Positions 1 through 16,353 of a stretch of DNA of 16,353 nucleotides are shown in pieces. The translations under genes were made by a program, and so were the position numbers. The stretch is from a virus (taxonomy: Duplodnaviria > Heunggongvirae > Uroviricota > Caudoviricetes). The stretch's first letter is position 1. The number at the start of each line of letters is the position of its first letter. The notes under the pieces were generated by a model. The model was not told the DNA's origin and searched no databases. It saw only the letters and a program-made list of their open reading frames with translations. Where the stretch lies: the IMG/VR virus record IMGVR_UViG_2718218139_000006; one strand, written 5' to 3'.

Positions 1-940
1 CTATGCTGTTTTGATATCTACGATAATCCAGTCTTTACCACGATCATCATTGTATCGGTCGGTCATTTTTCTGGATTTATGACCTAACAACTTTTGCGTA
101 TCCAGATCCTGTTCCCGATATAACCGTTCTGACAGAGATCGCTGCTCATGAAATGTGGGCGCAGTTCCTTGCTCCCATTTTATGCCACATTTTTCCCTGG
201 CCTTTTTAAAAGCCGTTGTAAGAGTATTTGCAGACACCTGGTCTCCTCTGTTTGCTTGAGAGGTAGTGTGACGGTAATGGACCAGATATTTACTAACAAC
301 AGCATCCCTGCACTGAGATATAACTTCACGAAGGGTAATATTCAGAGCATCGCATTTCAGGTTAAGCGGAATAGCAAGTTTTGAACCGGTTTTTTCCTGA
401 GTAATGTGCAACATGTCGTCCCAGATATCAGAGAATTTCAAATTGCAGATATCGCCTAAACGTTGTCCAGTGACAAGAGCAAGTAGCATCCCGCATTTTA
501 AATAGGGCTGCCGTCTGCTTACGCTGTCAAATATTGCCTGCCATTCGGACAGTGATAATCTTTGGCGGTTTACTCGATTTCGCGGTTGTTTTGTTGCCTG
601 CGCTGGGTTAAATCCTGGCGGAACATGTCCTGCGTGTTGTGCTTCTTTGAAGACGTCGATCAACACCATTCTCACGACTTGCGCCATCCTGTTATGACCT
701 TCAGCCTTTACAGCATCAATTATTTCGGCAATATCAAGTGCGGTAATATCCTTGTGGTGTTGCATTCCACAATGCTCACGGAAGAGACGAATGGGTTTGC
801 CTTTTTGCCGATAGGAGTTGGGTCTTAGTTCATTATGTTGCAGCCTGTCCTCCTGGATAGAAATATATTTATCAAGCCATTCTGTCACCGTAATGTCTGA
901 GCGCCTGCCTTTCATTCTTTCCAGACGCTCATTGACGCTT
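1..940 (-). pseudogene. int: Phage tyrosine integrase, 3' portion (312 codons plus stop), cut off from its 5' end by an IS insertion
   Basis: Translation ends ...LGHKSRKMTDRYNDDRGKDWIIVDIKTA, resembling the lambda Int C-terminus (HxxR...Y catalytic region). Stop codon at 1-3 (cta = TAG on minus). The frame continues into the IS end at 941; the Met at 970-972 in the ORF track lies inside the IS and is not the native start. Confidence 0.85.
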
Positions 941-983
941 TGAGGTGTACTGGCAATAGCGGACACTACCATTTGTTCTTTTT

Positions 984-1802
984 TTAAGCAGCCATCTGAT
1001 GATATTTTTCCCTGAAGGCTGCCGGGGAGATATTCCCCAGACGAGAGTGACGACGCTGACGATTGTAGAAAATCTCAATGTATTCCCGTATTACTGAGAT
1101 GGCTTCATCCCGGTTATTAAAACGATAGTGGCTCAGGCTCTCATTTTTCAGCGTTCCCCAGAAGCTTTCCATCGGAGCGTTGTCGTAACAGTTACCTTTA
1201 CGCGACATTGATGTTTTCAGACCAAACTGCTCCTGTATGACCCGGTAATCGTATGCGCAGTACTGTGAACCTCGATCAGAGTGGTGGATTAGCCCGGCAG
1301 GTGGGCGCTGGCTCCTGAGCGCCATAAACAGGGCTTTACCTGTCAGCTCTTTTGTCATGCGCTCTCCCATGGCGTAGCCGACAATTTCGCACGTATAAAC
1401 ATCTTTGATGCCAGCGAGGTACAACCATCCCTCCTGTGTGGCAACATACGTCAGGTCCGCCACCCAGACCTGATTTGGTGCTGTAGGAGCGAACGTCTGG
1501 TTCAGCAGATTTGGCGCAACTGGCAGATTGTGGTTCGAGTTCGTAGTCGCTCTGAACTTGCGTTTCTGCTTACAGCGTAGCCTTAGCTCCTTACGAAGAC
1601 GTGCCAGTCGGTCACGACCAACGATGATGCCATTCTCTGCCAGCTCCGTCTGGAGCCGCCGGGTTCCATATGTTTCGCGAGTGCGGATATGTGCCACCTT
1701 AATCTCCAGTTTTAGCCGCTCATCACTTTGTTTTCTGTCTGAGGGTTCATGCTGTACCCAGTTGTAATAACCGCTCCTGGATACACCAAATACCTGACAC
1801 AT
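984..1802 (-). CDS. IS3-family transposase OrfB (DDE/integrase catalytic domain), normally made as an OrfAB frameshift fusion
   Basis: 272-aa ORF with conserved IS3 OrfB motifs (WVADLTYV, HHSDRGSQY, CYDNAPMESFWGTLK). Lies in the -1 frame relative to orfA. Confidence 0.85.
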   Translation of the reverse strand: MCQVFGVSRSGYYNWVQHEPSDRKQSDERLKLEIKVAHIRTRETYGTRRLQTELAENGIIVGRDRLARLRKELRLRCKQKRKFRATTNSNHNLPVAPNLLNQTFAPTAPNQVWVADLTYVATQEGWLYLAGIKDVYTCEIVGYAMGERMTKELTGKALFMALRSQRPPAGLIHHSDRGSQYCAYDYRVIQEQFGLKTSMSRKGNCYDNAPMESFWGTLKNESLSHYRFNNRDEAISVIREYIEIFYNRQRRHSRLGNISPAAFREKYHQMAA

Positions 1803-1837
1803 CGCTTCAATGGGAAATTGTTGTCGCCATTGTTCGA

Positions 1838-2140
1838 TTAACGCGTATTTTTCAGCGACTCCTGTGCAAAATACGCTGTTGCTTTTTTTAATATATCTCG
1901 CTCAAGGCGAGCTTCATTTAACGCCTTACGCAGTTGCAGAATTTCAGATTCCAGTTCAGCCACCGTGCGGGAACCAGGAGTACCGAGCCCTTTTCTGGCG
2001 GCGGTAACCCATTGTCCTAAAGTGCCTTCAGGAAGAGATAATCGGGAAGCGCCTTCACTGATCGAAAGTTGATTTTCAAGAACCGTTCTGACAGCTTCGG
2101 CTTTGAACTCTTTAGAGTAACGTTGGGTTTTTCTGCTCAT
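1838..2140 (-). CDS. IS3-family transposase OrfA (HTH DNA-binding, leucine-zipper-like C-terminus)
   Basis: 100-aa ORF (MSRKTQRYSKEFKAEAVR...) typical of IS3-family OrfA. The slippery A-run sits near its 3' end. Start codon is about 60 bp inside the IS end. Confidence 0.85.
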   Translation of the reverse strand: MSRKTQRYSKEFKAEAVRTVLENQLSISEGASRLSLPEGTLGQWVTAARKGLGTPGSRTVAELESEILQLRKALNEARLERDILKKATAYFAQESLKNTR

Positions 2141-2207
2141 TATTAGCTCCTTCTGATGCCATTCTATTTCAGGAAGGAGTGTCCGTTAAACTCAGGCTAC
2201 CTCACTT

Positions 2208-2410
2208 AATATTTGTCGGGTACGTTGTTCAGCAATAATGGTATTTGCTTCAGTAGCAACCTGTTTTGCTTCATTCTCATCAGTTCCTAAACTATGAAAA
2301 CGACCGGATAGTGGATGTTTGTATTGCCAATATACCTTTCCGGTTCGCTTATCTAATTTGCAATATAAATTGGGTATAGAGATTTTGTGAGATCGGGGTC
2401 TAGCAGCCAT
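2208..2410 (-). pseudogene. int: Integrase 5' portion (N-terminal arm-type DNA-binding domain, 68 codons), separated from the rest by the IS
   Basis: MAARPRSHKISIPNLYCKLDKRTGKVYWQYKHPLSGRFHSLGTDENEAKQ... resembles lambda-type Int N-termini. The reading frame is continuous with the 1-940 fragment once 941-2207 (IS plus one CTT copy) is removed, giving a predicted 380-aa integrase. The int start overlaps the xis stop. Confidence 0.8.
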
Positions 2411-2636
2411 CAGCGATTATCCGTTGGAGTTTTGGGTTTGCGTTGATTGGGAGTTGCGGTTCTGCAAGCGTTCCTACAAAACGGGAATTTCGGTCAATCA
2501 TCCAGTAGCGACCAACTTTTATAGCGGGTGGGGCCATCATTTTCCCTTGCGCGTATTTTTTCAGAACTCGCTCACTTGGTGCTAAGTCCCCAAATTCTTC
2601 TTTAGCCCAGTCCTGTAAAGTGATTAGTCGAGACAT
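2400..2636 (-). CDS. xis: Excisionase (lambda Xis-like winged-helix)
   Basis: 78 aa; MSRLITLQDWAKEE...MMAPPAIKVGRYWMID aligns to lambda Xis motifs (LTLQEW, IFPPPVKDGREYLF). The 3' end overlaps the int start by 11 nt, the classic xis-int arrangement. Confidence 0.75.
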   Translation of the reverse strand: MSRLITLQDWAKEEFGDLAPSERVLKKYAQGKMMAPPAIKVGRYWMIDRNSRFVGTLAEPQLPINANPKLQRIIADGC

Positions 2637-2775
2637 TTGTCCTCCTCTTAGCTGCTGAGGGAGTTTGTGACCGATATATCTGACATGATATTAAGCTTAT
2701 GGCAGGTACATCTCTTGACTGGTCATAGAGATAAATTTAATGCTGAGAAATGCAGTATTGAATTTATCAATTTTT

Positions 2776-3015
2776 CTATTTCCTGCGTATGGCACGTAAC
2801 TTCTTAATGTGTTCTGCCGTTTCGATCTCTTCTGCTATCCGATCTGCATCAGCTTTATTCACAGGTTCAAAGTCATGATTAAAGCGGAACATGCTGGCGA
2901 TACATGTTCTGCCTTTTCGGATGTAGTGAACTTTGTTGTGGGTAGAACGCAGGATTTTGCAGGGAGTGCCGTGGTGATCGACGTACCAGGTGTTAGGAAA
3001 AATGATTCTGAACAT
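2776..3015 (-). CDS. Hypothetical small protein (79 aa) in the early-left operon position
   Basis: ATG ORF with a good Shine-Dalgarno (GAGGTG, 4-nt spacer before the ATG at 3015), co-oriented with xis/int. No family recognised. Confidence 0.5.
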   Translation of the reverse strand: MFRIIFPNTWYVDHHGTPCKILRSTHNKVHYIRKGRTCIASMFRFNHDFEPVNKADADRIAEEIETAEHIKKLRAIRRK

Positions 3016-3062
3016 TTTTACACCTCAATTGGACGATGTTGAAATTTGCTGCTTTGAGGCCA

Positions 3063-3281
3063 TCACAGTCCCCATTGTTTGTTCTTAAGTTCGATCTCCT
3101 CCTGGCAACTTGCACAAGTCCGACAACCCTGAACGGCCAGGCGTCTTCGTTCATCTATCGGATCGCCACACTCACAACAATGAGTGGCAGATATAGCCTG
3201 GTGGTTCAGGCGGCGCATTTTTATTGCTGTGTTGCGCTGTAATTCTTCAATTTCTGATGCTGAATCAATGATGTCTGCCAT
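3063..3281 (-). CDS. DksA/TraR-family C4 zinc-finger protein (phage TraR-like)
   Basis: 72 aa with CxxC-(17 aa)-CxxC (CECGDPIDERRRLAVQGCRTCASCQ) and size like TraR/lambda Orf73-type proteins. Same orientation as the xis/int operon. Confidence 0.65.
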   Translation of the reverse strand: MADIIDSASEIEELQRNTAIKMRRLNHQAISATHCCECGDPIDERRRLAVQGCRTCASCQEEIELKNKQWGL

Positions 3282-3330
3282 CTTTCATTAATCCCTGAAT
3301 TGTTGGTTAATACGCTTGAGGGTGAATGCG

Positions 3331-3356
3331 AATAATAAAAAAGGAGCCTGTAGCTC
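3331..3356 (-). terminator. Candidate intrinsic terminator on the minus strand
   Basis: Minus-strand hairpin GGAGC-TACAG-GCTCC followed by TTTTTTATTATT, just downstream of the 3380 stop. The stem is only 5 bp, so it is weak. Confidence 0.35.
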
Positions 3357-3379
3357 CATGATGATTTTGTTTTTCATGT

Positions 3380-3595
3380 TCACCGTTCCTTAAAGACGCC
3401 GTTTAACATGCCGATCGCCAGGCTTAAATGAGTCGGTGTGAATCCCATCAGCGTTACCGTTTCGCGGTGCTTCTTCAGTACGCTACGGCAAATGTCATCG
3501 ACGTTTTTATCCGGAAACTGCTGTCTGGCTTTTTTGATTTCATAATTAGCCTGACGGGCAATACTGCGAAGGGCGTTTTCTTGCTGAGGTGTCAT
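3380..3595 (-). CDS. Hypothetical small protein (71 aa from the ATG at 3595; an alternative upstream start at 3727 would give 115 aa)
   Basis: ORF MTPQQENALRSIARQANYEIKKARQQ... in early-left orientation, followed by the candidate terminator. Its 5' region overlaps the plus-strand Q-like ORF, so one of the two starts is probably wrong. Confidence 0.35.
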   Translation of the reverse strand: MTPQQENALRSIARQANYEIKKARQQFPDKNVDDICRSVLKKHRETVTLMGFTPTHLSLAIGMLNGVFKER

Positions 3596-4191
3596 TGAAC
3601 AAGTCCCATGTCGGCAAGCATACATACAAACGAAAGAAACCGCGCATTCTGGATGAAGTGACCGGCAGGTTAATAACGCTGGATAATCCGCCGATACCCG
3701 GTAAGCAGTCACGGGCGAAAGGCTCATCCATTGCCCTGGTCAGTCCGATCGAGTTCTCAACATCATCATGGCGCCGCGCGGTTCTGTCTCTCGAAGAACA
3801 TCAGAAAGCGTGGTTGCTGTGGAGTTACAGCGAAAGTGTTCGCTGGGAACATCAGGTCACCATAACGCAGTGGGCATGGAGCGAGTTTAAGACTCTGTTG
3901 GGTACCAGGAAAATTGCAGGTAAGACACTGGAACGTTTGAAGAAGTTGATCTGGCTGGCGGCACAGGATGTGAAGAACGAGCTGGCAGGGCGTAAGACCT
4001 ATGAATACCAGGAGTTGGCATCACTGGTGGGAGTGACATCAAAAAACTGGTCTGAGACATTTACTGAACGCTGGGTTGCAATGAAGCACATTTTTCTACA
4101 GCTTGATAGCCAAGCTTTATTGCTTTTAACGAAAACACGTTCAAAACAAAAGACCACATTTTCACAGCAAGATATTGCAAAACTGGATTAA
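3589..4191 (+). CDS. Putative late-gene regulator (Q-antiterminator-like by position), HTH-like segment near the C-terminus; start uncertain, possibly 5'-truncated
   Basis: 200-codon ORF immediately upstream of a terminator-rich leader and the lysis cassette, the canonical Q position. Contains an HTH-like stretch (YQELASLVGVTSKNWSETF). There is no in-frame ATG near the 5' end (only GTG/TTG candidates) and no recognised similarity to lambda Q. Confidence 0.35.
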   Translation: MSLNKSHVGKHTYKRKKPRILDEVTGRLITLDNPPIPGKQSRAKGSSIALVSPIEFSTSSWRRAVLSLEEHQKAWLLWSYSESVRWEHQVTITQWAWSEFKTLLGTRKIAGKTLERLKKLIWLAAQDVKNELAGRKTYEYQELASLVGVTSKNWSETFTERWVAMKHIFLQLDSQALLLLTKTRSKQKTTFSQQDIAKLD

Positions 4192-4260
4192 AAATCATAT
4201 ATTTTATGTAAATCTGATATTTTGCCAATGTTGTACGCACTGGCCGTAATCCAAATTCAA

Positions 4261-4296
4261 GCCCGAGGTTTAAAGCCTTGGGCTTTTCTGTTTCTG
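4261..4296 (+). terminator. Candidate intrinsic terminator / structured late-leader element
   Basis: Hairpin GCCCGAGG-tttaaag-CCTTGGGC (8 bp with one G-U pair) followed by a U-rich tract (ttttctgtttctg). Confidence 0.45.
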
Positions 4297-4372
4297 GGCG
4301 GTGAGTATCCTTCCAACGTACCCCAGCCAGGGTGTCTTCAGCTGTTGAGTTGATATTGCTTAACCCTCTGTT

Positions 4373-4398
4373 GCCAGCTACATGCTGGCTTTTTTATT
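4373..4398 (+). terminator. Candidate tR'-like intrinsic terminator between the Q-like gene and the lysis genes
   Basis: Hairpin GCCAGC-tacat-GCTGGC followed by TTTTTTATT. Confidence 0.55.
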
Positions 4399-4512
4399 CC
4401 AGGCTTGCGGGGAGCATCAACTCCGTGCTTTGTCGTTAAATTACCCCGTGAGCCTGATTTCTGACATTTAACGTCCCGGCCTTTTGTCGGCGGCGAAACA
4501 TTGGCTATTCAT

Positions 4513-4818
4513 ATGCACGAAAAAGAGAGCCTTGCCGGAGCGTTCTGGCTCGTTTTGCTGATCATCGCAGGTTGGGGCGGTCTGGTCCGCTACCTGATAG
4601 ATGTGAAGCAGAGTAAAGCAACGTGGAGCTGGATAAATGCTTTGGCTCAGATAGTGGTGTCGGGATTCACCGGTGTTATTGGTGGCCTGATCAGTATCGA
4701 AAGTGGATTCAGTATTTACATGATTCTCGCGACAGCGGGGATTAGTGGTGCGATGGGTTCGGTTGCACTGACATACTTCTGGGAACGACTGACAGGGGTG
4801 AAAAATGCAAAATCTTAA
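4513..4818 (+). CDS. Holin (not lambda S-like), about 101 aa from ATG 4513; the ORF track begins at TTG 4501
   Basis: Small protein with several hydrophobic transmembrane-like segments and a charged C-terminus, directly upstream of and overlapping the endolysin gene. Confidence 0.7.
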   Translation: MHEKESLAGAFWLVLLIIAGWGGLVRYLIDVKQSKATWSWINALAQIVVSGFTGVIGGLISIESGFSIYMILATAGISGAMGSVALTYFWERLTGVKNAKS

Positions 4819-5281
4819 TCCTCAGCGTAAAGCTTTCCTCGATATGGTGGCATGGTCAGAAGGAACGGATAACGGACGGCAGAAAACCAGAAATCATGGT
4901 TATGACGTCATTGTAGGCGGAGAGCTATTTACTGATTACTCCGATCACCCTCGCAAACTTGTCACGCTAAACCCCAAACTCAAATCAACAGCAGCCGGAC
5001 GTTATCAGCTTCTTTCACGCTGGTGGGATGCTTACCGTAAGCAGCTTGGCCTGAAAGACTTCTCCCCCAAAAGCCAGGACGCAGTGGCATTGCAGCAGAT
5101 TAAAGAACGTGGCGCTTTACCGATGATTGATCGCGGTGATATTCGTCAGGCAATTGACCGTTGCAGCAATATCTGGGCTTCACTGCCGGGCGCTGGTTAT
5201 GGTCAGTTCGAGCATAAGGCTGACAGCCTGATTGCAAAATTCAAAGAAGCTGGCGGAACGGTCAGAGAGATTGAGGTATGA
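4805..5281 (+). CDS. R: Endolysin R (lytic transglycosylase), lambda R homolog
   Basis: 158 aa; from residue 8 (QRKAFLDM...) onward matches lambda R as I recall it, while the first 7 residues differ. Confidence 0.9.
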
Positions 5282-5739
5282 GCAGAGTAACCGCGATTAT
5301 CTCCGCTCTGGTTATTTGCATCATCGTCTGCCTGTCTTGGGCTGTTAATCATTACCGTGATAACGCCATTACCTACAAGGCCCAGCGCGACAAAAATGCC
5401 AGAGAACTGAAGCTGGCGAACGCGGCAATTACTGACATGCAGATGCGTCAGCGTGATGTTGCTGCGCTCGATGCAAAATACACGAAGGAGTTAGCTGATG
5501 CTAAAGCTGAAAATGATGCTCTGCGTGATGATGTTGCCGCTGGTCGTCGTCGGTTGCACATCAAAGCAGTCTGTCAGTCAGTGCGTGAAGCCACCACCGC
5601 CTCCGGCGTGGATAATGCAGCCTCCCCCCGACTGGCAGACACCGCTGAACGGGATTATTTCACCCTCAGAGAGAGGCTGATCACTATGCAAAAACAACTG
5701 GAAGGAACCCAGAAGTATATTAATGAGCAGTGCAGATAG
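5278..5739 (+). CDS. Rz: Spanin inner-membrane subunit Rz
   Basis: 153 aa, [58 protein letters not shown]..., matching lambda Rz. ATGA start/stop overlap with R. Confidence 0.9.
5498..5680 (+). CDS. Rz1: Spanin outer-membrane lipoprotein subunit Rz1, embedded in the +1 frame of Rz
   Basis: 60 aa, [24 protein letters not shown]... with a lipobox (VVGC) and a proline-rich stretch, matching lambda Rz1. Confidence 0.85.
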
Positions 5740-5740
5740 A

Positions 5741-5762
5741 GTTGCCCATATCGATGGGCAAC
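5741..5762. terminator. Candidate bidirectional terminator hairpin between convergent Rz and bor
   Basis: Perfect 9-bp stem GTTGCCCAT-atcg-ATGGGCAAC lying exactly between the Rz stop (5739) and the bor stop (5771). Confidence 0.5.
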
Positions 5763-5770
5763 TCATGCAA

Positions 5771-6064
5771 TTATTGTGAGCAATACACACGCGCTTCCAG
5801 CGGAGTATAAATGCCTAAAGTAATAAAACCGAGCAATCCATTTACGAATGTTTGCTGGGTTTCTGTTTTAACAACATTTTCTGCGCCGCCACAAATTTTG
5901 GCTGCATCGACAGTTTTCTTCTGCCCAATTCCAGAGACGAAGAAATGGTGGGTGATGGTTTCCTTTGGTGTTACTGCTGCCGGTTTGTTTTGAACAGTAA
6001 ACGTCTGTTGGGCACATCCTGTAATAAGCAGGGCCAGCGCAGTAGCGAGTAGCATTTTTTTCAT
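5771..6064 (-). CDS. bor: Bor lipoprotein (serum-resistance-associated lysogenic conversion protein)
   Basis: 97 aa, MKKMLLATALALLITGCAQQ... with signal peptide and lipobox (LITGC); matches lambda Bor. Confidence 0.9.
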   Translation of the reverse strand: MKKMLLATALALLITGCAQQTFTVQNKPAAVTPKETITHHFFVSGIGQKKTVDAAKICGGAENVVKTETQQTFVNGLLGFITLGIYTPLEARVYCSQ

Positions 6065-6208
6065 GGTGTTATTCCCGATGCTTTTTAAAGTTCGCAGAAT
6101 CGTATGTGTAGAAAATTAAACAAACCCTAAACAAACCCTAAACAATGAGTTGAAATCTCATATTGTTAATATTTATTAATGTATGTCAGATGCGAAGGAT
6201 CGTCACTG

Positions 6209-6274
6209 TATTCCCGGATTAACTATGTCCGCAGCCCTGACAGGGAAACTCCTCTGCGGGAGTGTCCGGGAATA
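6209..6274. repeat. Nested dyad-symmetry element in the bor-downstream intergenic region
   Basis: Perfect 10-bp inverted repeat TATTCCCGGA (6209-6218) / TCCGGGAATA (6265-6274) enclosing an inner inverted repeat CCGCAG (6229-6234) / CTGCGG (6254-6259) and a central CCCTG-a-CAGGG. Confidence 0.6.
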
Positions 6275-6366
6275 ATTAATAACGATGCACACAGGGTTTA
6301 GCGCGTACACGTATTGCATTATGCCAACGCCCCGGTGCTGACACGGAAGAAACCGGACGTTATGAT

Positions 6367-6900
6367 TTAGCGTGGAAAGATTTGTGTAGTGTTCTGAATG
6401 CTCTCAGTAAATAGTAATGAATTATCAAAGGCATAGTAATATCTTTTATGTTCGTGGATATTTGTAACCCATCGGAAAACTCCTGCTTTAGCAAGATTTT
6501 CCCTGTATTGCTGAAATGTGATTTCTCTTGATTTCAACCTATCATAGGACGTTTCTATAAGATGCGTATTTCTTGAGAATTTAACATTTACAACCTTTTT
6601 AAGTCCTTTTATTAACACAGTGTTATCGTTTTCTAACACAATGTGAATATTATCTGTGGCTAGATAGTAAATATAATGTGAGACATTGTGACGTTTTAGT
6701 TCAGAATAAAACAATTCACAGTTTAAATCTTTTCGCACTTGATCGAATATTTCTTTAAAAATGGCAACCTGAGCCATTGGTAAAACCTTCCATGTGATAC
6801 GAGGGCGCGTAGTTTGCATTATCGTTTTTATTGTTTCAATCTGGTCTGACCTCTTTGTGTTTTGTTGATGATTTATGTCAAATATTAGGAATGTTTTCAA
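6367..6900 (-). CDS. Conserved lambdoid late-region hypothetical protein (at the position of the lambda ORF downstream of bor)
   Basis: 177-aa ORF co-oriented with bor. Its position relative to Rz/bor/cos matches an unnamed lambda ORF. Confidence 0.55.
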
Positions 6901-7062
6901 TTAATAGTATTGGTTGCGTAACAAAGTGCGGTCCTGCTGGCATTCTGGAGGGAAATACAACCGACAGATGTATGTAAGGCCAACGTGCTCAAATCTTCAT
7001 ACAGAAAGATTTGAAGTAATATTTTAACCGCTAGATGAAGAGCAAGCGCATGGAGCGACAAA

Positions 7063-7269
7063 ATGAATAAAGAACAATCTGCTGATGATCCCTCCGTGGA
7101 TCTGATTCGTGTAAAAAATATGCTTAATAGCACCATTTCTATGAGTTACCCTGATGTTGTAATTGCATGTATAGAACATAAGGTGTCTCTGGAAGCATTC
7201 AGGGTAATTGAGGCAGCGTTGGTGAAGCACGATAATAATATGAAGGATTATTCCCTGGTGGTTGACTGA
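7063..7269 (+). CDS. Small conserved lambdoid hypothetical protein (68 aa)
   Basis: ATG ORF at the position of a small lambda right-end ORF. Confidence 0.45.
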
Positions 7270-7433
7270 TCACCATAACTGCTAATCATTCAAACTACTT
7301 AACCTGTGACAGAGCCAACACGCAGTCTGTCACTGTCAGGAAAGTGGTAAAACTGCAACTCAATTACTGCAATGCCCTCGTAATTAAGTGAATTTACAAT
7401 ATCGTCCTGTTCGGAGGGAAGAACGCGGGATGT

Positions 7434-7628
7434 TCATTCTTCATCACTTTTAATTGATGTATATGCTCTCTTTTCTGACGTTAGCCTCCGACGGCAGGCT
7501 TCAATGACCCAGGCTGAGAAATTTCCGGACCCTTTTTGATCAAGAGCGATGTTAATTTGTTCAATCATTTGGTTAGGAAAGCGGATGTTGCGGGTTGTTG
7601 TTCTGCGGGTTCTGTTCTTCGTTGACAT
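7434..7628 (-). CDS. Small basic protein, YlcI/DUF3950-like, possible ribbon-helix-helix fold
   Basis: 64 aa, MSTKNRTRRTTTRNIRFPNQMIEQINIALDQKGSGNFSAWVIEACRRRL...; Arg-rich N-terminus followed by a beta-alpha-alpha-like pattern. Resembles the small protein found next to cos/nohD in DLP12-type prophages (from memory). Confidence 0.5.
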   Translation of the reverse strand: MSTKNRTRRTTTRNIRFPNQMIEQINIALDQKGSGNFSAWVIEACRRRLTSEKRAYTSIKSDEE

Positions 7629-7827
7629 GAGGTTGCCCCGTATTCAGTGTCGCTGATTTGTATTGTCTGAAGTTGTTTTTACGTTAAGTTGATGCGGATC
7701 AATTAATACGATACCTGCGTCATAATTGATTATTTGACGTGGTTTGATGGCGTAGATGCACGTTGTGACATGTAGATGATAATTATTATCATTTTGCGGG
7801 TCCTTTCCGGCGATCCGACAGGTTACG

Positions 7828-7839
7828 GGGCGGCGACCT
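7828..7839. other. cosN: the 12-nt lambda cohesive-end sequence GGGCGGCGACCT (terminase nicking site)
   Basis: Exact 12-mer, preceded by lambda right-end sequence (...TCCGACAGGTTACG) and followed by lambda left-end sequence (CGCGGGTTTTCGCTATTTATGAAAATTTTCCGG). Confidence 0.9.
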
Positions 7840-7875
7840 CGCGGGTTTTCGCTATTTATGAAAATTTTCCGGTTT

Positions 7876-7993
7876 AAGGTGTTTCCGTTCTTCTTCGTCG
7901 TAACTTAATGTTTTTATTTAAAATACCCCCTAAAAAGAAAGGAAACGACAGGTGCTGAAAGCGAGCTTTTTGGCCTCTGTCGTTTCCTTTCTC
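7876..7993 (+). promoter_or_regulatory. cosB: terminase small-subunit binding sites R3, R2, R1 with an intervening AT-rich IHF-type site (I1)
   Basis: Three copies of the CGTTTCC core: R3 about 7880-7895, R2 inverted about 7937-7952, R1 about 7975-7993, with an AT-rich segment at 7898-7927. Lies between cosN and nu1 as in lambda. Confidence 0.8.
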
Positions 7994-8016
7994 TGTTTTT
8001 GTCCGTGGAATGAACA

Positions 8017-8536
8017 ATGGAAGTCAACAAAAAGCAGCTGGCTGACATTTTCGGTTCGAGTATCCGTACCATTCAGAACTGGCAGGAACAGGGAATGCCC
8101 GTTCTGCGAGGCGGTGGCAAGGGTAATGAGGTGCTTTATGACTCTGCCGCCGTCATAAAATGGTATGCCGAAAGGGATGCTGAAATTGAGAACGAAAAGC
8201 TGCGCCGGGAGGTTGAAGAACTGCGGCAGGCCAGCGAGACAGATCTCCAGCCAGGGACTATTGAGTACGAACGCCATCGACTTACGCGTGCGCAGGCCGA
8301 CGCACAGGAGCTGAAAAATGCCAGAGACTCCGCTGAAGTGGTGGAAACCGCATTCTGTACTTTCGTGCTGTCGCGGATCGCAGGTGAAATTGCCAGTATT
8401 CTCGACGGGATCCCCCTGTCGGTGCAGCGGCGTTTTCCGGAACTGGAAAACCGACATGTTGATTTCCTGAAACGGGATATCATCAAAGCCATGAACAAAG
8501 CAGCCGCGCTGGATGAACTGATACCGGGGTTGCTGA

Positions 8537-8562
<26 letters not shown>
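8017..8562 (+). CDS. nu1: Terminase small subunit Nu1
   Basis: 181 aa, MEVNKKQLADIFGSSIRTIQNWQEQGMPVLRGGGKGNEVLYD..., matching lambda Nu1 (N-terminal winged HTH). Confidence 0.95.
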
Positions 8563-12056
<3,494 letters not shown>

Positions 12057-12060
12057 CGTC

Positions 12061-12636
12061 ATGTCAGAGCAGAAAAAGACCTGGGCGGCTGAAGACCAGC
12101 TTCGCGGGAGCTGGATGGCAGGCCTGAAGTCCGGCTGGAGTGAGTGGGAAGAGAGCGCCACGGACTGTATGTTGCAGGTAAAAAGTGCAGCCACGCAGAC
12201 CTTTGATGGTATTGCACAGAATATGGCGGCGATGCTGACCGGCAGTGAACAGAACTGGCGTAGCTTCACCCGTTCCGTGCTGTCCATGATGACAGAAATT
12301 CTGCTTAAGCAGGCAATGGTGGGGATTGTCGGGAGTATCGGCAGCGCCATTGGCGGGGCTGTTGGTGGCGGCGCATCCGCGTCAGGCGGTATGGCTTACA
12401 GCCGTGTGTCGACTTTCTCCGGGGATTATCTCCGCGTAACTGACAACAAGGGGAAAACGCACGACGTGCTGACCGGAAGTGATGACGGTCGCCACAGCAA
12501 CACGTCTCTGGCGTGGGGAGCTGGCGTGCAGTTTAACCCGACCGAATCCGTGGCCATTGATATTGCTTATGAAGGCTCCGGCAGTGGCGACTGGCGCACT
12601 GACGGTTTCATCGTGGGTGTCGGTTATAAGTTCTGA
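12061..12636 (+). pseudogene. Chimeric ORF: internal C-terminal segment of tail tape-measure H fused in frame to the C-terminal about 80 residues of outer-membrane protein Lom
   Basis: First 110 residues (MSEQKKTWAAEDQLRG...GGAVGGGASASGG) match the C-terminal region of lambda gpH; the remainder (...SLAWGAGVQFNPTESVAIDIAYEGSGSGDWRTDGFIVGVGYKF) is the Lom/Ail-family C-terminus. Junction near 12388-12393. Confidence 0.8.
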
Positions 12637-12663
12637 TTAGCCAGGTAACACAGTGTTATGACA

Positions 12664-12689
12664 GCCCGCCGGTTCAGGCGGGCTTTTTT
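12664..12689 (+). terminator. Intrinsic terminator downstream of the lom remnant
   Basis: 7-bp GC-rich stem GCCCGCC-ggttca-GGCGGGC followed by TTTTTT. Confidence 0.7.
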
Positions 12690-12700
12690 GTGGGGTGAAT

Positions 12701-15700
12701 ATGGCAGTAAAGATTTCAGGTGTACTGAAAGACGGCACAGGAAAACCGGTAGAGAACTGCACCATTCAACTGAAAGCCAGACGGACCAGCAGCACGGTGG
12801 TGGTGAACACGGTGGCCTCTGAAAATCCGGATGAAGCCGGTCGTTACAGCATGGACGTTGAGTACGGTCAGTACAGCGTCATTCTGTTGGTGGAAGGATT
12901 CCCGCCGTCACATGCCGGGACCATCACCGTGTATGAAGACTCACAACCGGGTACGCTGAATGATTTTCTTGGTGCCATGACGGAGGATGATGCCCGTCCG
13001 GAGGCACTGCGCCGTTTTGAGCTGATGGTGGAAGAGGTGGCGCGTAACGCGTCCGCGGTGGCACAAAACACGGCAGCCGCGAAGAAGTCAGCCGGCGATG
13101 CCAGCACATCTGCCAGTGAGGCGGCAACCCATGCGACTGATGCTGCAGGCTCAGCACGCGCAGCCAGCACGTCAGCCGGACAGGCCGCGTCGTCGGCTCA
13201 GTCAGCGTCTTCCAGCGCAGGAACGGCATCAACAAAGGCCACTGAAGCGGAAAAAAGTGCTGCCGCTGCAGAGTCCTCAAAAAGCGCGGCGGCCACCAGT
13301 GCCGGTGCGGCGAAAACGTCAGAAACGAATGCCGCAGCGTCACAACAATCAGCAGCCACTTCTGCATCCACCGCGACCACGAAAGCGTCAGAAGCTGCCA
13401 CCTCAGCCAGGGATGCGGCGGCCTCAAAAGAGGCAGCGAAATCATCAGAAACGAACGCATCCTCGAGCGCCAGTAGCGCAGCTTCCTCGGCAACGGCGGC
13501 AGGAAATTCCGCGAAGGCGGCAAAAACGTCCGAGACGAACGCTAAGTCTTCTGAGACGGCAGCGGAACAGAGTGCCTCCGCAGCAGCAGACTCAAAAACA
13601 GCGGCTGCATCATCTGCCAGCGCCGCGTCAACAAGTGCCGGGCAGGCCTCAGCCAGTGCCACCGCTGCCGGAAAGTCGGCAGAAAGTGCCGCATCGTCTG
13701 CTTCAACAGCCACAACGAAGGCTGGCGAAGCCACTGAACAGGCCAGCGCAGCAGCGAGTTCTGCTTCCGCAGCGAAGACATCCGAAACGAACGCGAAAGC
13801 GTCGGAAACCAGCGCAGAATCCTCAAAAACGGCTGCCGCATCGTCAGCCAGTTCGGCGGCGTCATCGGCATCATCTGCGTCTGCTTCAAAAGATGAGGCG
13901 ACCAGACAAGCGTCAGCAGCGAAGAGCAGCGCCACGACGGCATCCACGAAGGCGACAGAGGCAGCTGGCAGTGCGACGGCGGCAGCTCAGAGCAAAAGTA
14001 CGGCGGAATCCGCGGCAACGCGCGCCGAGACAGCAGCTAAACGGGCAGAGGATATTGCATCCGCCGTGGCGCTTGAGGATGCGAGCACGACGAAAAAGGG
14101 GATAGTACAGCTCAGCAGTGCGACCAACAGCACTTCCGAGTCACAGGCGGCAACGCCAAAAGCCGTTAAGGCCGCGTATGACCTGGCTAACGGGAAATAC
14201 ACCGCACAGGATGCAACGACAGCACAGAAAGGGATAATCCAGCTAAGCAGCGCGACCAACAGCACATCTGAAACGCTTGCCGCGACACCAAAGGCAGTAA
14301 AAACAGCCTATGACAATGCTGAGAAACGTCTGCAGAAAGATCAGAACGGTGCGGATATCCCTGGCAAAGACACCTTTACGAAAAATATTGGTGCCTGCCG
14401 TGCCTTCGGTGGGTCAGTAAGCACAATAACAGGAAACTGGACGACTGCACAGTTTATCGAGTGGCTGGATTCTCAGGGAGCATTTAACCATCCCTACTGG
14501 ATGTGCAAGGGTTCCTGGTCTTATGGCAATAATAAAATCATTACTGATACTGACTGCGGTAATATTCATCTCGCCGGAGCTGTCATTGAAGTAATGGGGA
14601 TAAAGTCAGCGATGACGATCCGCATTACCACACCGACCACCTCCACTGGTGGTGGAACAACTAACGCCCAGTTTACCTATATTAATCACGGAACAGATTA
14701 TTCACCTGGCTGGCGAAGGGACTATAACTCCAGAAATAAGCCAACGGCATCAGAGATCGGGGCGTTACCGTCAGGTGGAACAGCAGTATCATCAGTTAAT
14801 CTGGCTTCAAAAGGTCGGGTAACCGCGCTGACAGACAATACGCAGGGGGCAACAGGTCTTGAGTTATACGAGGTGTATAACAACGGATATCCAACAGCGT
14901 ATGGAAATATCATTCACCTGAAAGGGATGACAGCCGTTGGCGAAGGTGAGTTACTCATCGGCTGGAGTGGTACAAGCGGTGCTCATGCTCCGGCATTTAT
15001 TCGTTCACGACGGGATACGACCGACGCAAACTGGTCGCCGTGGGCGCAGCTTTACACCTCGGCTCATCCTCCTGCAGAGTTTTATCCAGTCGGTGCACCA
15101 ATCCCGTGGCCATCAGATACCGTTCCGTCTGGTTATGCCCTGATGCAGGGGCAGACTTTTGACAAATCTGCCTACCCGAAACTTGCAGCGGCTTATCCGT
15201 CAGGCGTGATCCCTGATATGCGTGGCTGGACGATTAAGGGCAAACCTGCCAGTGGTCGGGCCGTATTGTCTCAGGAACAGGACGGCATTAAATCGCATAC
15301 CCACAGCGCCAGCGCATCCAGTACGGATTTGGGGACGAAAACCACATCGTCGTTTGATTACGGCACTAAATCCACGAATAACACTGGTGCGCATACCCAT
15401 AGTTTAAGTGGCAGCACGAATGCAGCTGGTAATCACAGCCATAGAGATGGCCGTCGATTTAACCCCAGTGTTTTTAAAGATACTTATCAATATGGTTATA
15501 CAAGCTCAGGTCAAAATACCTGGGGTGTACAAGGCTCAGTAGGTATGTCTACGGGGTGGTTAGCTAATACCAGTACAGATGGTAATCATAGCCACTCACT
15601 GTCCGGCACAGCAGCATCTGCAGGTGCACACGCGCATACTGTCGGTATTGGTGCTCATACGCACTCCGTTGCGATTGGTTCACATGGACACACCATCACC

Positions 15701-15772
15701 GTTAACGCTGCTGGTAACGCGGAAAACACCGTCAAAAACATCGCATTTAACTATATTGTGAGGCTTGCATAA
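12701..15772 (+). CDS. stf: Side tail fibre protein Stf (about 1023 aa from ATG 12701), apparently full length
   Basis: N-terminus [17 protein letters not shown]...; long Ala/Ser/Thr-rich repetitive shaft; two copies of the tail-fibre repeat (G-I-[VI][11 protein letters not shown]...ATPKAVK); His-rich C-terminal tip with repeated HxH motifs ([46 protein letters not shown]), ending ...[11 protein letters not shown] as in lambda Stf / T4 gp37-type fibres. Confidence 0.9.
13080..14060 (+). repeat. Low-complexity GC-rich coding repeat region inside stf (Ala/Ser/Thr-rich shaft)
   Basis: Reiterated motifs such as AKTSETNA, SSASxASTxAxxA; this region generates long artefactual ORFs in the other five frames. 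Confidence 0.8.
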
Positions 15773-16353
15773 TGGCATTCAGAATGAGTGAACAACCACG
15801 GACCATAAAAATTTATAATCTGCTGGCCGGAACTAATGAATTTATTGGTGAAGGTGACGCATATATTCCGCCTCATACAGGTCTGCCAGCAAACAGTACC
15901 GATATTGCACCACCAGATATTCCTGCTGGCTTTGTGGCTGTTTTCAACAGTGATGAGGCATCGTGGCATCTCGTTGAAGACCATCGGGGTAAAACGGTTT
16001 ATGACGTAGCGTCAGGGGACGCGTTATTTATTTCTGAACTCGGTCCGTTACCGGAAAATGTTACCTGGTTATCGCCGGAAGGGGAGTTTCAGAAGTGGAA
16101 CGGCACAGCCTGGGTGAAAGATGCAGAAGCAGAAAAACTGTTCCGGATCCGGGAGGCGGAAGAAACAAAAAACAGCCTGATGCAGGTAGCCAGTGAGCAT
16201 ATTGCGCCACTTCAGGATGCTGTAGATCTGGAGATCGCAACGGAGGAAGAAAACTCGTTGCTGGAAGCCTGGAAGAAGTATCGGGTGTTGCTGAACCGTG
16301 TTGATACATCAACTGCACCTGATATTGAGTGGCCTGTAATACCAGAAGTTTAA
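15772..16353 (+). CDS. tfa: Tail fibre assembly protein Tfa (chaperone)
   Basis: 193 aa, [79 protein letters not shown]..., matching lambda Tfa. TAATG overlap with the stf stop. Confidence 0.9.

Follow-up and report, generated by a model that had tools for sequence, protein, structure and literature searches.

In a lambdoid prophage remnant beside icd, most probably of Escherichia coli, the integrase gene is interrupted by a complete copy of IS600, which is flanked by a duplicated CTT triplet and which separates the arm-binding domain of the protein from everything that follows it. The window, i.e. the whole stretch of 16,353 nucleotides that was analysed, thus carries int in two pieces. The explanation that we consider very probable is that of a single IS600 insertion which split int in an already defective remnant at icd and which was a neutral event. 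One transposition, catalysed by the DDE transposase that is made via a -1 frameshift, would have put 1264 bp between codons 68 and 69 of int and duplicated CTT in a lambdoid prophage remnant at icd, from which the immunity, replication, capsid and tail genes would already have gone. The cut in the integrase would lie exactly where the arm-binding domain at the N-terminus gives way to the core-binding and catalytic part, a split that should abolish recombination at the natural att sites. The insertion would be neutral and fairly recent, would have struck prophage DNA in the course of decay in a lineage of E. coli with active IS600, and would take away the last means of self-excision from an element already unable to make phage.

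The inserted element and its target site

Over its full length the insert is 100% identical (1264/1264 bp) to copies in at least 10 RefSeq E. coli genomes, which bear the annotation 'IS3-like element IS600 family transposase'. The initial annotation had called the element IS600-like; because of this full-length identity to annotated IS600 copies it can be named IS600 itself, the name being here the one given by the RefSeq/PGAP annotation of the identical copies. IS600 belongs to the IS3 group of the IS3 family and was first described in Shigella sonnei; matches to it occur in 3,486 of the 5,426 complete E. coli genomes.

The element has the anatomy of an IS3-family member in each of the respects considered, namely identity, a pair of reading frames with a frameshift, a DDE core, TG...CA repeats and a 3-bp duplication (Table 1). 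The consecutive orfA and orfB are arranged as in IS3 and joined by a -1 frameshift: a simulated -1 shift at the A7G run gives a 385-aa OrfAB fusion, and the corresponding CDS (984-2140, 1157 nt) equals in span the RefSeq IS600 CDS marked 'programmed frameshift'. The transposase matches Pfam rve (E = 3.2e-26) and NCBIfam NF033516, transpos_IS3 (334.7 bits against a cut-off of 160). The ends read TGAGGT...CGGACACT and form the imperfect TG...CA inverted repeats that had been described initially, with 24 of the 45 outermost positions matching between them; the right end as written, ...GTGTCCGTTAAACTCAGGCTACCTCA, is an imperfect inverted copy of the left end, TGAGGTGTACTGGCAATAGCGGACAC. A promoter-like TTAACG-17-TAGAAT is located at 2189-2161 on the minus strand, just within the orfA-proximal inverted repeat. 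When compared with the IS600 reference system, the length, the ends, the A7G frameshift, the rve domain and the 3-bp duplication are all the same and only the insertion site differs. Among the other IS600 copies inspected, three are 1264 bp long with 3-bp duplications (GCT, CAT and CTC), and the fourth, which lies at a deletion joint, is without target duplication.

Table 1. Coordinates, in the window, of the interrupted integrase gene, the inserted IS600 and the scarred prophage genes
Feature	Position	Strand	Remarks
int 3' fragment, codons 69-380 and stop	1..940	-	Core-binding and catalytic domains
323-aa hybrid ORF	1..972	-	ATG at 970-972, within the IS600 end and in frame with the int catalytic fragment
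Target-site duplication, copy 1	938..940		CTT
Complete IS600, 1264 bp	941..2204	-	Transposase direction = int direction; assigned from full-length 100% identity and the ends
IS600 terminal inverted repeat, orfB-distal end	941..966		TGAGGTGTACTGGCAATAGCGGACAC
IS600 orfB frame, 272 aa from first ATG	984..1802	-	HTH_21 and rve DDE core
IS600 orfA, 100 aa	1838..2140	-	HTH_Tnp_1
Slippery run A7G, -1 programmed frameshift site	1882..1889	-	AAAAAAAG
IS600 terminal inverted repeat, orfA-proximal end	2179..2204		Reverse complement TGAGGTAGCCTGAGTTTAACGGACAC
ORF of int 5' fragment running into IS600	2192-2410	-	72-aa product
Target-site duplication, copy 2	2205..2207		CTT
int 5' fragment, codons 1-68	2208..2410	-	Arm-binding domain
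xis, 78 aa, intact	2400..2636	-	Pfam Exc; 11-nt overlap with int start
Q antiterminator without N-terminus	3589..4191	+	Pfam match from profile position 34 of 220
Portal gene, broken into two ORFs	10662..12056	+	ORFs 10662-11600 and 11649-12056
Chimeric 191-aa ORF, C-terminus of tape-measure protein H and C-terminus of Lom	12061..12636	+	Pfam Tape_meas_lam_C and Ail_Lom

The identical CTT triplets on either side of the element, which had been read as a target duplication from the beginning, are a 3-bp match that chance alone would give once in 64 cases, and it is the comparison with empty sites that settles the matter. In E. coli 2014C-3011 and 2013C-4974 the flanks are continuous, with CATTGACGCTT followed directly by AATATTTGTCGG and with a single CTT, the uninterrupted site of these two strains reading ...CATTGACGCTTAATATTTGTCGG...; phage PhiR57_1 has the same empty site, again with continuous flanks. 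The triplets thus represent a true target duplication. The rebuilt int-xis DNA (1433 nt) finds a one-piece match, with identity up to 99.9%, in 1,591 of the 5,426 complete E. coli genomes and also in 27 phage records, including ev017, PhiR57_1 and Lambda_4C10, to which the DNA identity of the int-xis stretch is 99.0-99.4%.

Since IS600 is multicopy and short-read contigs break within it (one of the contigs compared ends inside the element), a copy might have been misplaced into int by repeat collapse during assembly. The 3-bp duplication at the junctions is nevertheless perfect, the flanks rejoin exactly, and the 72-aa and 323-aa products specific to the junctions are present in several independent assemblies, including megabase contigs. 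In total, these products were found in at least three NCBI assemblies and in seven independently assembled read sets; the 72-aa product has an exact match in 8 other contigs, and the 323-aa ORF was predicted by gene callers in two NCBI assemblies. This recurrence in independent assemblies and read sets rules out an assembly artefact for all practical purposes, and we accord it next to no probability.

An integrase split at its domain boundary

The removal of 941-2207 in silico joins 2208-2410 to 1-940 on the minus strand and yields a frame of 1143 nt (380 codons plus stop), with no internal stop and with integrase domains on both sides of the junction, as had been anticipated. The rebuilt protein matches Pfam Arm-DNA-bind_1 (PF09003) over aa 1-71 (E = 1.6e-28; 99 bits against a cut-off of 22) and Phage_integrase (PF00589) over aa 195-367 (E = 1.3e-24), and it aligns end to end with the lambda Int structure 1z1b (E = 3.9e-55, residues 4-356). 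The catalytic R-K-H-R-H-Y positions are conserved relative to lambda Int, the 1z1b alignment showing TGQR, KTG, HEQR, LLGH and RY. Both Pfam and the structural alignment support the division initially proposed, with 68 codons for arm binding and 312 codons for catalysis, the longer piece containing the core-binding part as well. The break falls between L68 and S69, which align with L64 and T65 of lambda Int, the boundary of its arm-binding domain.

The rebuilt Int shares the layout of lambda Int, with arm-binding, core-binding and catalytic parts, but here the gene is split and carries two private missense changes, L130H and G346D, which are found in none of the seven intact comparators. The claim of a cleanly reconstructable int is therefore to be qualified: the frame of 380 aa is restored as stated, whereas the restored protein differs from its intact relatives at these two residues. 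The int pieces are separated from the closest intact allele by just 2 nt, both of them missense, and one of the residues affected, L130, is a leucine conserved in lambda and in all seven relatives. The two changes would fit relaxed constraint, on small numbers; with only 2 nt differences, they could also precede the insertion or be ordinary polymorphism. The neighbouring xis had been regarded as intact, and indeed the window from 2205 to 2680 is 100% identical to a sibling locus in which xis is annotated as excisionase WP_000088653.1.

As the locus stands, 1267 bp interrupt the int ORF at codon 68/69 and no continuous polypeptide leads from arm binding to catalysis. The same boundary has been used in the engineering of a split lambda Int (Williams et al. 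2022, PMC9791396). When N64 and C65 were supplied as separate polypeptides, recombination was 0%, both for attP/attB and for core sites (PMC9791396); for attP/attB it remained at 0% even with the E174K substitution, and for activity the peptide 57-64 was needed on the C-terminal part (PMC9791396). In comparison with these engineered halves, the natural N piece gains three residues (EVA) at its C-terminus and the natural C piece up to 11 aa at its N-terminus, all from IS600. Because the ORF is split and the separated lambda halves give no recombination, we consider int in this window to be a pseudogene of the lambda-type integrase family. The split integrase is expected to be non-functional, in which case the remnant could not excise itself.

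Some activity might be imagined to persist, either through the 72-aa peptide and the 323-aa protein acting together or through the C-terminal part acting alone on core sites. The catalytic residues are intact, the ATG of the in-frame 323-aa ORF lies 11 nt past the orfB stop, and R190 aligns with lambda E174; in lambda, a basic residue at that position (E174K) enables C65 to recombine core sites without arms at about 0.2% (PMC9791396). Since this type of integrase naturally has an arginine at the lambda int-h position, the C-terminal part might recombine core sites weakly. Such residual activity nonetheless appears most unlikely to us, for the lambda C65 and N64 pair is inactive on attP/attB even with E174K (PMC9791396), the sequence ahead of the 323-aa ORF offers no convincing ribosome-binding site, and L130H replaces the conserved leucine mentioned above. 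Moreover, a promoter scan gave no outward promoter-like site at the orfB-distal IS600 end, the overall counts in that scan being at the level of shuffled sequence. We likewise see very little chance that the locus encodes a natural 'binary' integrase, which would consist of a free arm-binding peptide and a 323-aa protein translated after orfB, and whose weak, arm- and Xis-independent recombination of core sites would be tied to the expression of the IS600 transposase.

A decayed prophage at icd and the order of its losses

The prophage is a remnant of roughly 16 kb. Rightward from xis come a DUF4222 gene, a TraR-like gene and a Q gene without its N-terminus, then holin, endolysin, Rz, bor, ybcV, Nu1, terminase A and W, and finally a split portal gene, a tape-measure/Lom chimera, a side tail fibre gene and tfa. 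The exo-to-nin region (N, cI, cro, cII, O, P) is absent, as are the genes from C/Nu3 to J, which leaves the remnant devoid of capsid genes and with hardly any tail genes. The early-region deletion has left its scar at the truncated Q, with a junction near 3622 in the block map against PhiR57_1 (PGAP annotates this Q as 'missing N-terminus' in the siblings), and the tape-measure/Lom chimera is the scar of the tail-gene deletion. In 2014C-3011 the portal gene is annotated by PGAP as 'internal stop; incomplete'. PhiR57_1, an intact 49.5-kb phage with the same int/xis, gives the measure of what has been lost. Beyond the genes of the remnant it has, in its early region, exo, bet, gam, kil, cIII, N, cI, cro, cII, O, P, ren, the nin genes and a whole Q, and, in its late region, C/Nu3, D, E, FI, FII, Z, U, V, G, T, H, M, L, K, I and J. 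By this comparison, the remnant does not possess the complete immunity, replication, head and tail modules of an inducible lambdoid prophage. The regulators of the usual lambda routes of int/xis expression (pL with N, pI with cII) are also gone, and int and xis are presumably silent in the remnant.

In 2014C-3011 and 2013C-4974, about 114 bp separate the 380-aa int from the 3' end of icd. The interrupted allele is present in contig PVZZ01000002.1 of GCA_003015365.1, which matches the window over 10,973 nt with 0 mismatches and one single-base gap (in the C-run at 5629); there, int' runs directly into icd, which is followed by rluE, nudJ, mnmA, hflD and purB. Interrupted and uninterrupted int occupy the same attachment site, icd; the initial annotation, without naming the site, had suggested that an uninterrupted int be looked for at the attachment site of the interrupted one. 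By its position, the integrase would appear tied to icd, and in this it resembles the e14 and phage 21 type integrases, the location beside icd being the same as for e14 (PMC6379469). The remnant is however distinct from e14 of K-12, since its int and xis are of the type found in lambda-like phages, for instance PhiR57_1. No far att site, in the form of a repeat of the icd 3' end, was found in a 25-kb sibling locus. The assignment to E. coli follows from the siblings, which are 99.4-99.9% identical, and from the neighbouring genes. A Shigella origin, which the abundance of IS600 in that genus might suggest, finds no support, as the nearest relatives are E. coli of STEC or bovine type and one contig with the interrupted allele measures 5.2 Mb.

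The siblings with an intact int also order the events. The locus of 2014C-3011 is colinear with window 3414-16353 (99.7%, one gap) and has both large deletions in common with it; the int-intact sibling locus L015 is colinear with window 2205-9413 and shares the early-region deletion, but its tail-region scars are different. The early-region deletion is common to 2014C-3011 and 2013C-4974/L015, and the tail-region deletion is shared by 2014C-3011, which also has a further 733-bp deletion of its own (window 2681-3413). Being common to int-intact siblings, the early and tail deletions are older than the IS600 insertion. Parsimony over three or four genomes suggests that decay at icd in one E. coli lineage went from the early-region deletion to the tail deletion and then to IS600. 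The insertion itself looks young, because the IS is identical to other copies and int is 2 nt from its closest intact allele, in agreement with the recent origin suggested at the outset.

These observations bear on the proposal, made in the initial annotation, that the insertion locks the prophage in place. The element had by then lost its early region, the N-terminal end of Q and the C/Nu3-to-J genes, and its portal gene was broken; the idea of a lock is not supported and is largely moot. As the remnant lacks a repressor, N, cII and the replication, capsid and tail genes, the insertion trapped no live phage. The lock would possibly also be reversible: the IS-excision enhancer IEE can excise IS600 in STEC (PMC9397093), and in a strain with iee the knock-out of int would not have to be permanent.

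A selective variant of this proposal is that the IS600 insertion was favoured as it fixes a useful remnant by blocking its Int/Xis-mediated loss. The remnant does carry possible cargo (bor, a lom fragment, lysis genes and a side tail fibre), int is the sole recombination gene struck while xis is intact, excision-defective prophages have been suggested to be favoured (PMC6379469), and other E. coli integrases are also interrupted by IS600. We nevertheless judge such selection improbable. Neither the left nor the right IS600/int junction was detected in any of the 5,426 complete E. coli genomes (400-nt probes, at least 80% coverage), against about 1,590 of these genomes with an intact int, and the left junction had 0 exact matches in a scan of the GTDB representative genomes. 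The interrupted allele is rare, since the junction-specific 72-aa and 323-aa products occur in only a handful of assemblies and read sets. Furthermore, int-intact sibling remnants persist at icd, which means that the stability of the remnant needs no insertion, and the regulators of int/xis expression are deleted. The other int::IS600 cases surfaced from probes bearing an int flank, which biased the ranking. They comprise three events at different positions, and owing to this bias we draw no conclusion on a preference of IS600 for int genes.

Significance for prophage decay

A neutral insertion into decaying DNA, as preferred here, places the remnant among the 'grounded' or cryptic prophages of E. 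coli (e14, DLP12, Rac and Qin), with which it shares large deletions, the disabling of excision and the retention of lysis, bor and tail-fibre genes. The event is also similar to the insertion of IS600 in lacZ of STEC O121:H19 (PMC9397093), where a simple insertion of the same IS inactivates the gene, reversibly so where iee is present; in contrast to lacZ::IS600, there is here no apparent selection for the restoration of int.

It is only by coincidence that the finding has a wider interest, in that the natural break sits at the exact domain boundary chosen in split-Int engineering. Past annotation it has little meaning, being a textbook case of IS-mediated pseudogenisation for which both filled and empty sites are to hand, and the proper annotation of the locus is int::IS600 in a cryptic prophage, not two separate integrase-like genes. 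For the biology of these prophages, IS600 in int is an ordinary step of decay, of a kind already known and involving no new mechanism.

IS600 in integrase genes

Three further, unrelated integrase genes of E. coli are split by IS600: those of a prophage adjoining torS, of an island and of an O26 prophage. The insertion positions vary among these three cases, with 3-bp duplications of GCT, CAT and CTC, and GC lies within or just before the duplicated target in all four IS600 cases when that of the window is counted. Because the probes behind the other interrupted genes contained int flank, no enrichment of IS600 in integrase genes can be claimed. At the locus L007, IS600 bridges exo' and int' and lacks a target duplication; the absence of a duplication and the joining of these two truncated genes indicate an IS-mediated deletion.

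Coordinates of the features discussed; L004-L007 are E. coli loci with other copies of IS600
Feature	Coordinates	Strand	Remarks
Hybrid ORF, 323 aa	window 1-972	-	ATG within the IS600 end, continuing into the int catalytic fragment
Int R190	window 371-373	-	
Segment absent from E. coli 2014C-3011	window 2681-3413		DUF4222 and TraR-like genes
Early-region deletion joint	window 3380-4191		joint near 3622; orf61-like gene against N-terminally incomplete Q
C-run length difference	window 5629		inside Rz
Lambda-family portal gene	window 10662-12056	+	broken into two ORFs (312 + 135 aa)
Chimeric ORF, 191 aa	window 12061-12636	+	in frame; Tape_meas_lam_C + Ail_Lom
IS009 (RF02111)	window 16115-16313	+	full-length Rfam match
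IS600 copy	L004 2513-3776		
IS600 copy	L005 2509-3772		
IS600 copy	L006 1437-2700		
IS600 copy	L007 1437-2700		

The hybrid reading frame and sequence variation

The hybrid ORF begins 11 nt 3' of the orfB stop, and two NCBI assemblies list it among the proteins predicted by gene callers. Within its integrase part, R190 aligns with E174 of lambda Int, the residue replaced by the activating int-h substitution E174K (PMC9791396); integrases of this type have arginine here. When the window was compared with PVZZ01000002.1, a contig carrying the same interrupted allele, a single difference was found in 10,973 nt, namely the length of a C-run, which shifts the called length of Rz from 153 to 133 aa and is probably a homopolymer sequencing difference. 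We also observed that the tail-fibre assembly gene contains a match to the sRNA family IS009, scoring 227.9 bits (gathering score, 117).

Gene scars and deletions

The chimeric ORF fuses the C-terminus of the lambda H tape-measure protein with the beta-barrel portion at the C-terminal end of Lom, and is the scar left by the deletion of M, L, K, I and J. For the portal gene, an internal stop is also annotated by PGAP in a sibling remnant. The span from exo to nin, including N, cI, cro, cII, O and P, is missing from the window, and the siblings with an intact int have the same early-region joint. One of these siblings, in E. coli 2014C-3011, additionally lacks 733 bp, and PGAP has called a 'ZapA' ORF over the resulting joint; this loss is a separate, additional deletion of that lineage.
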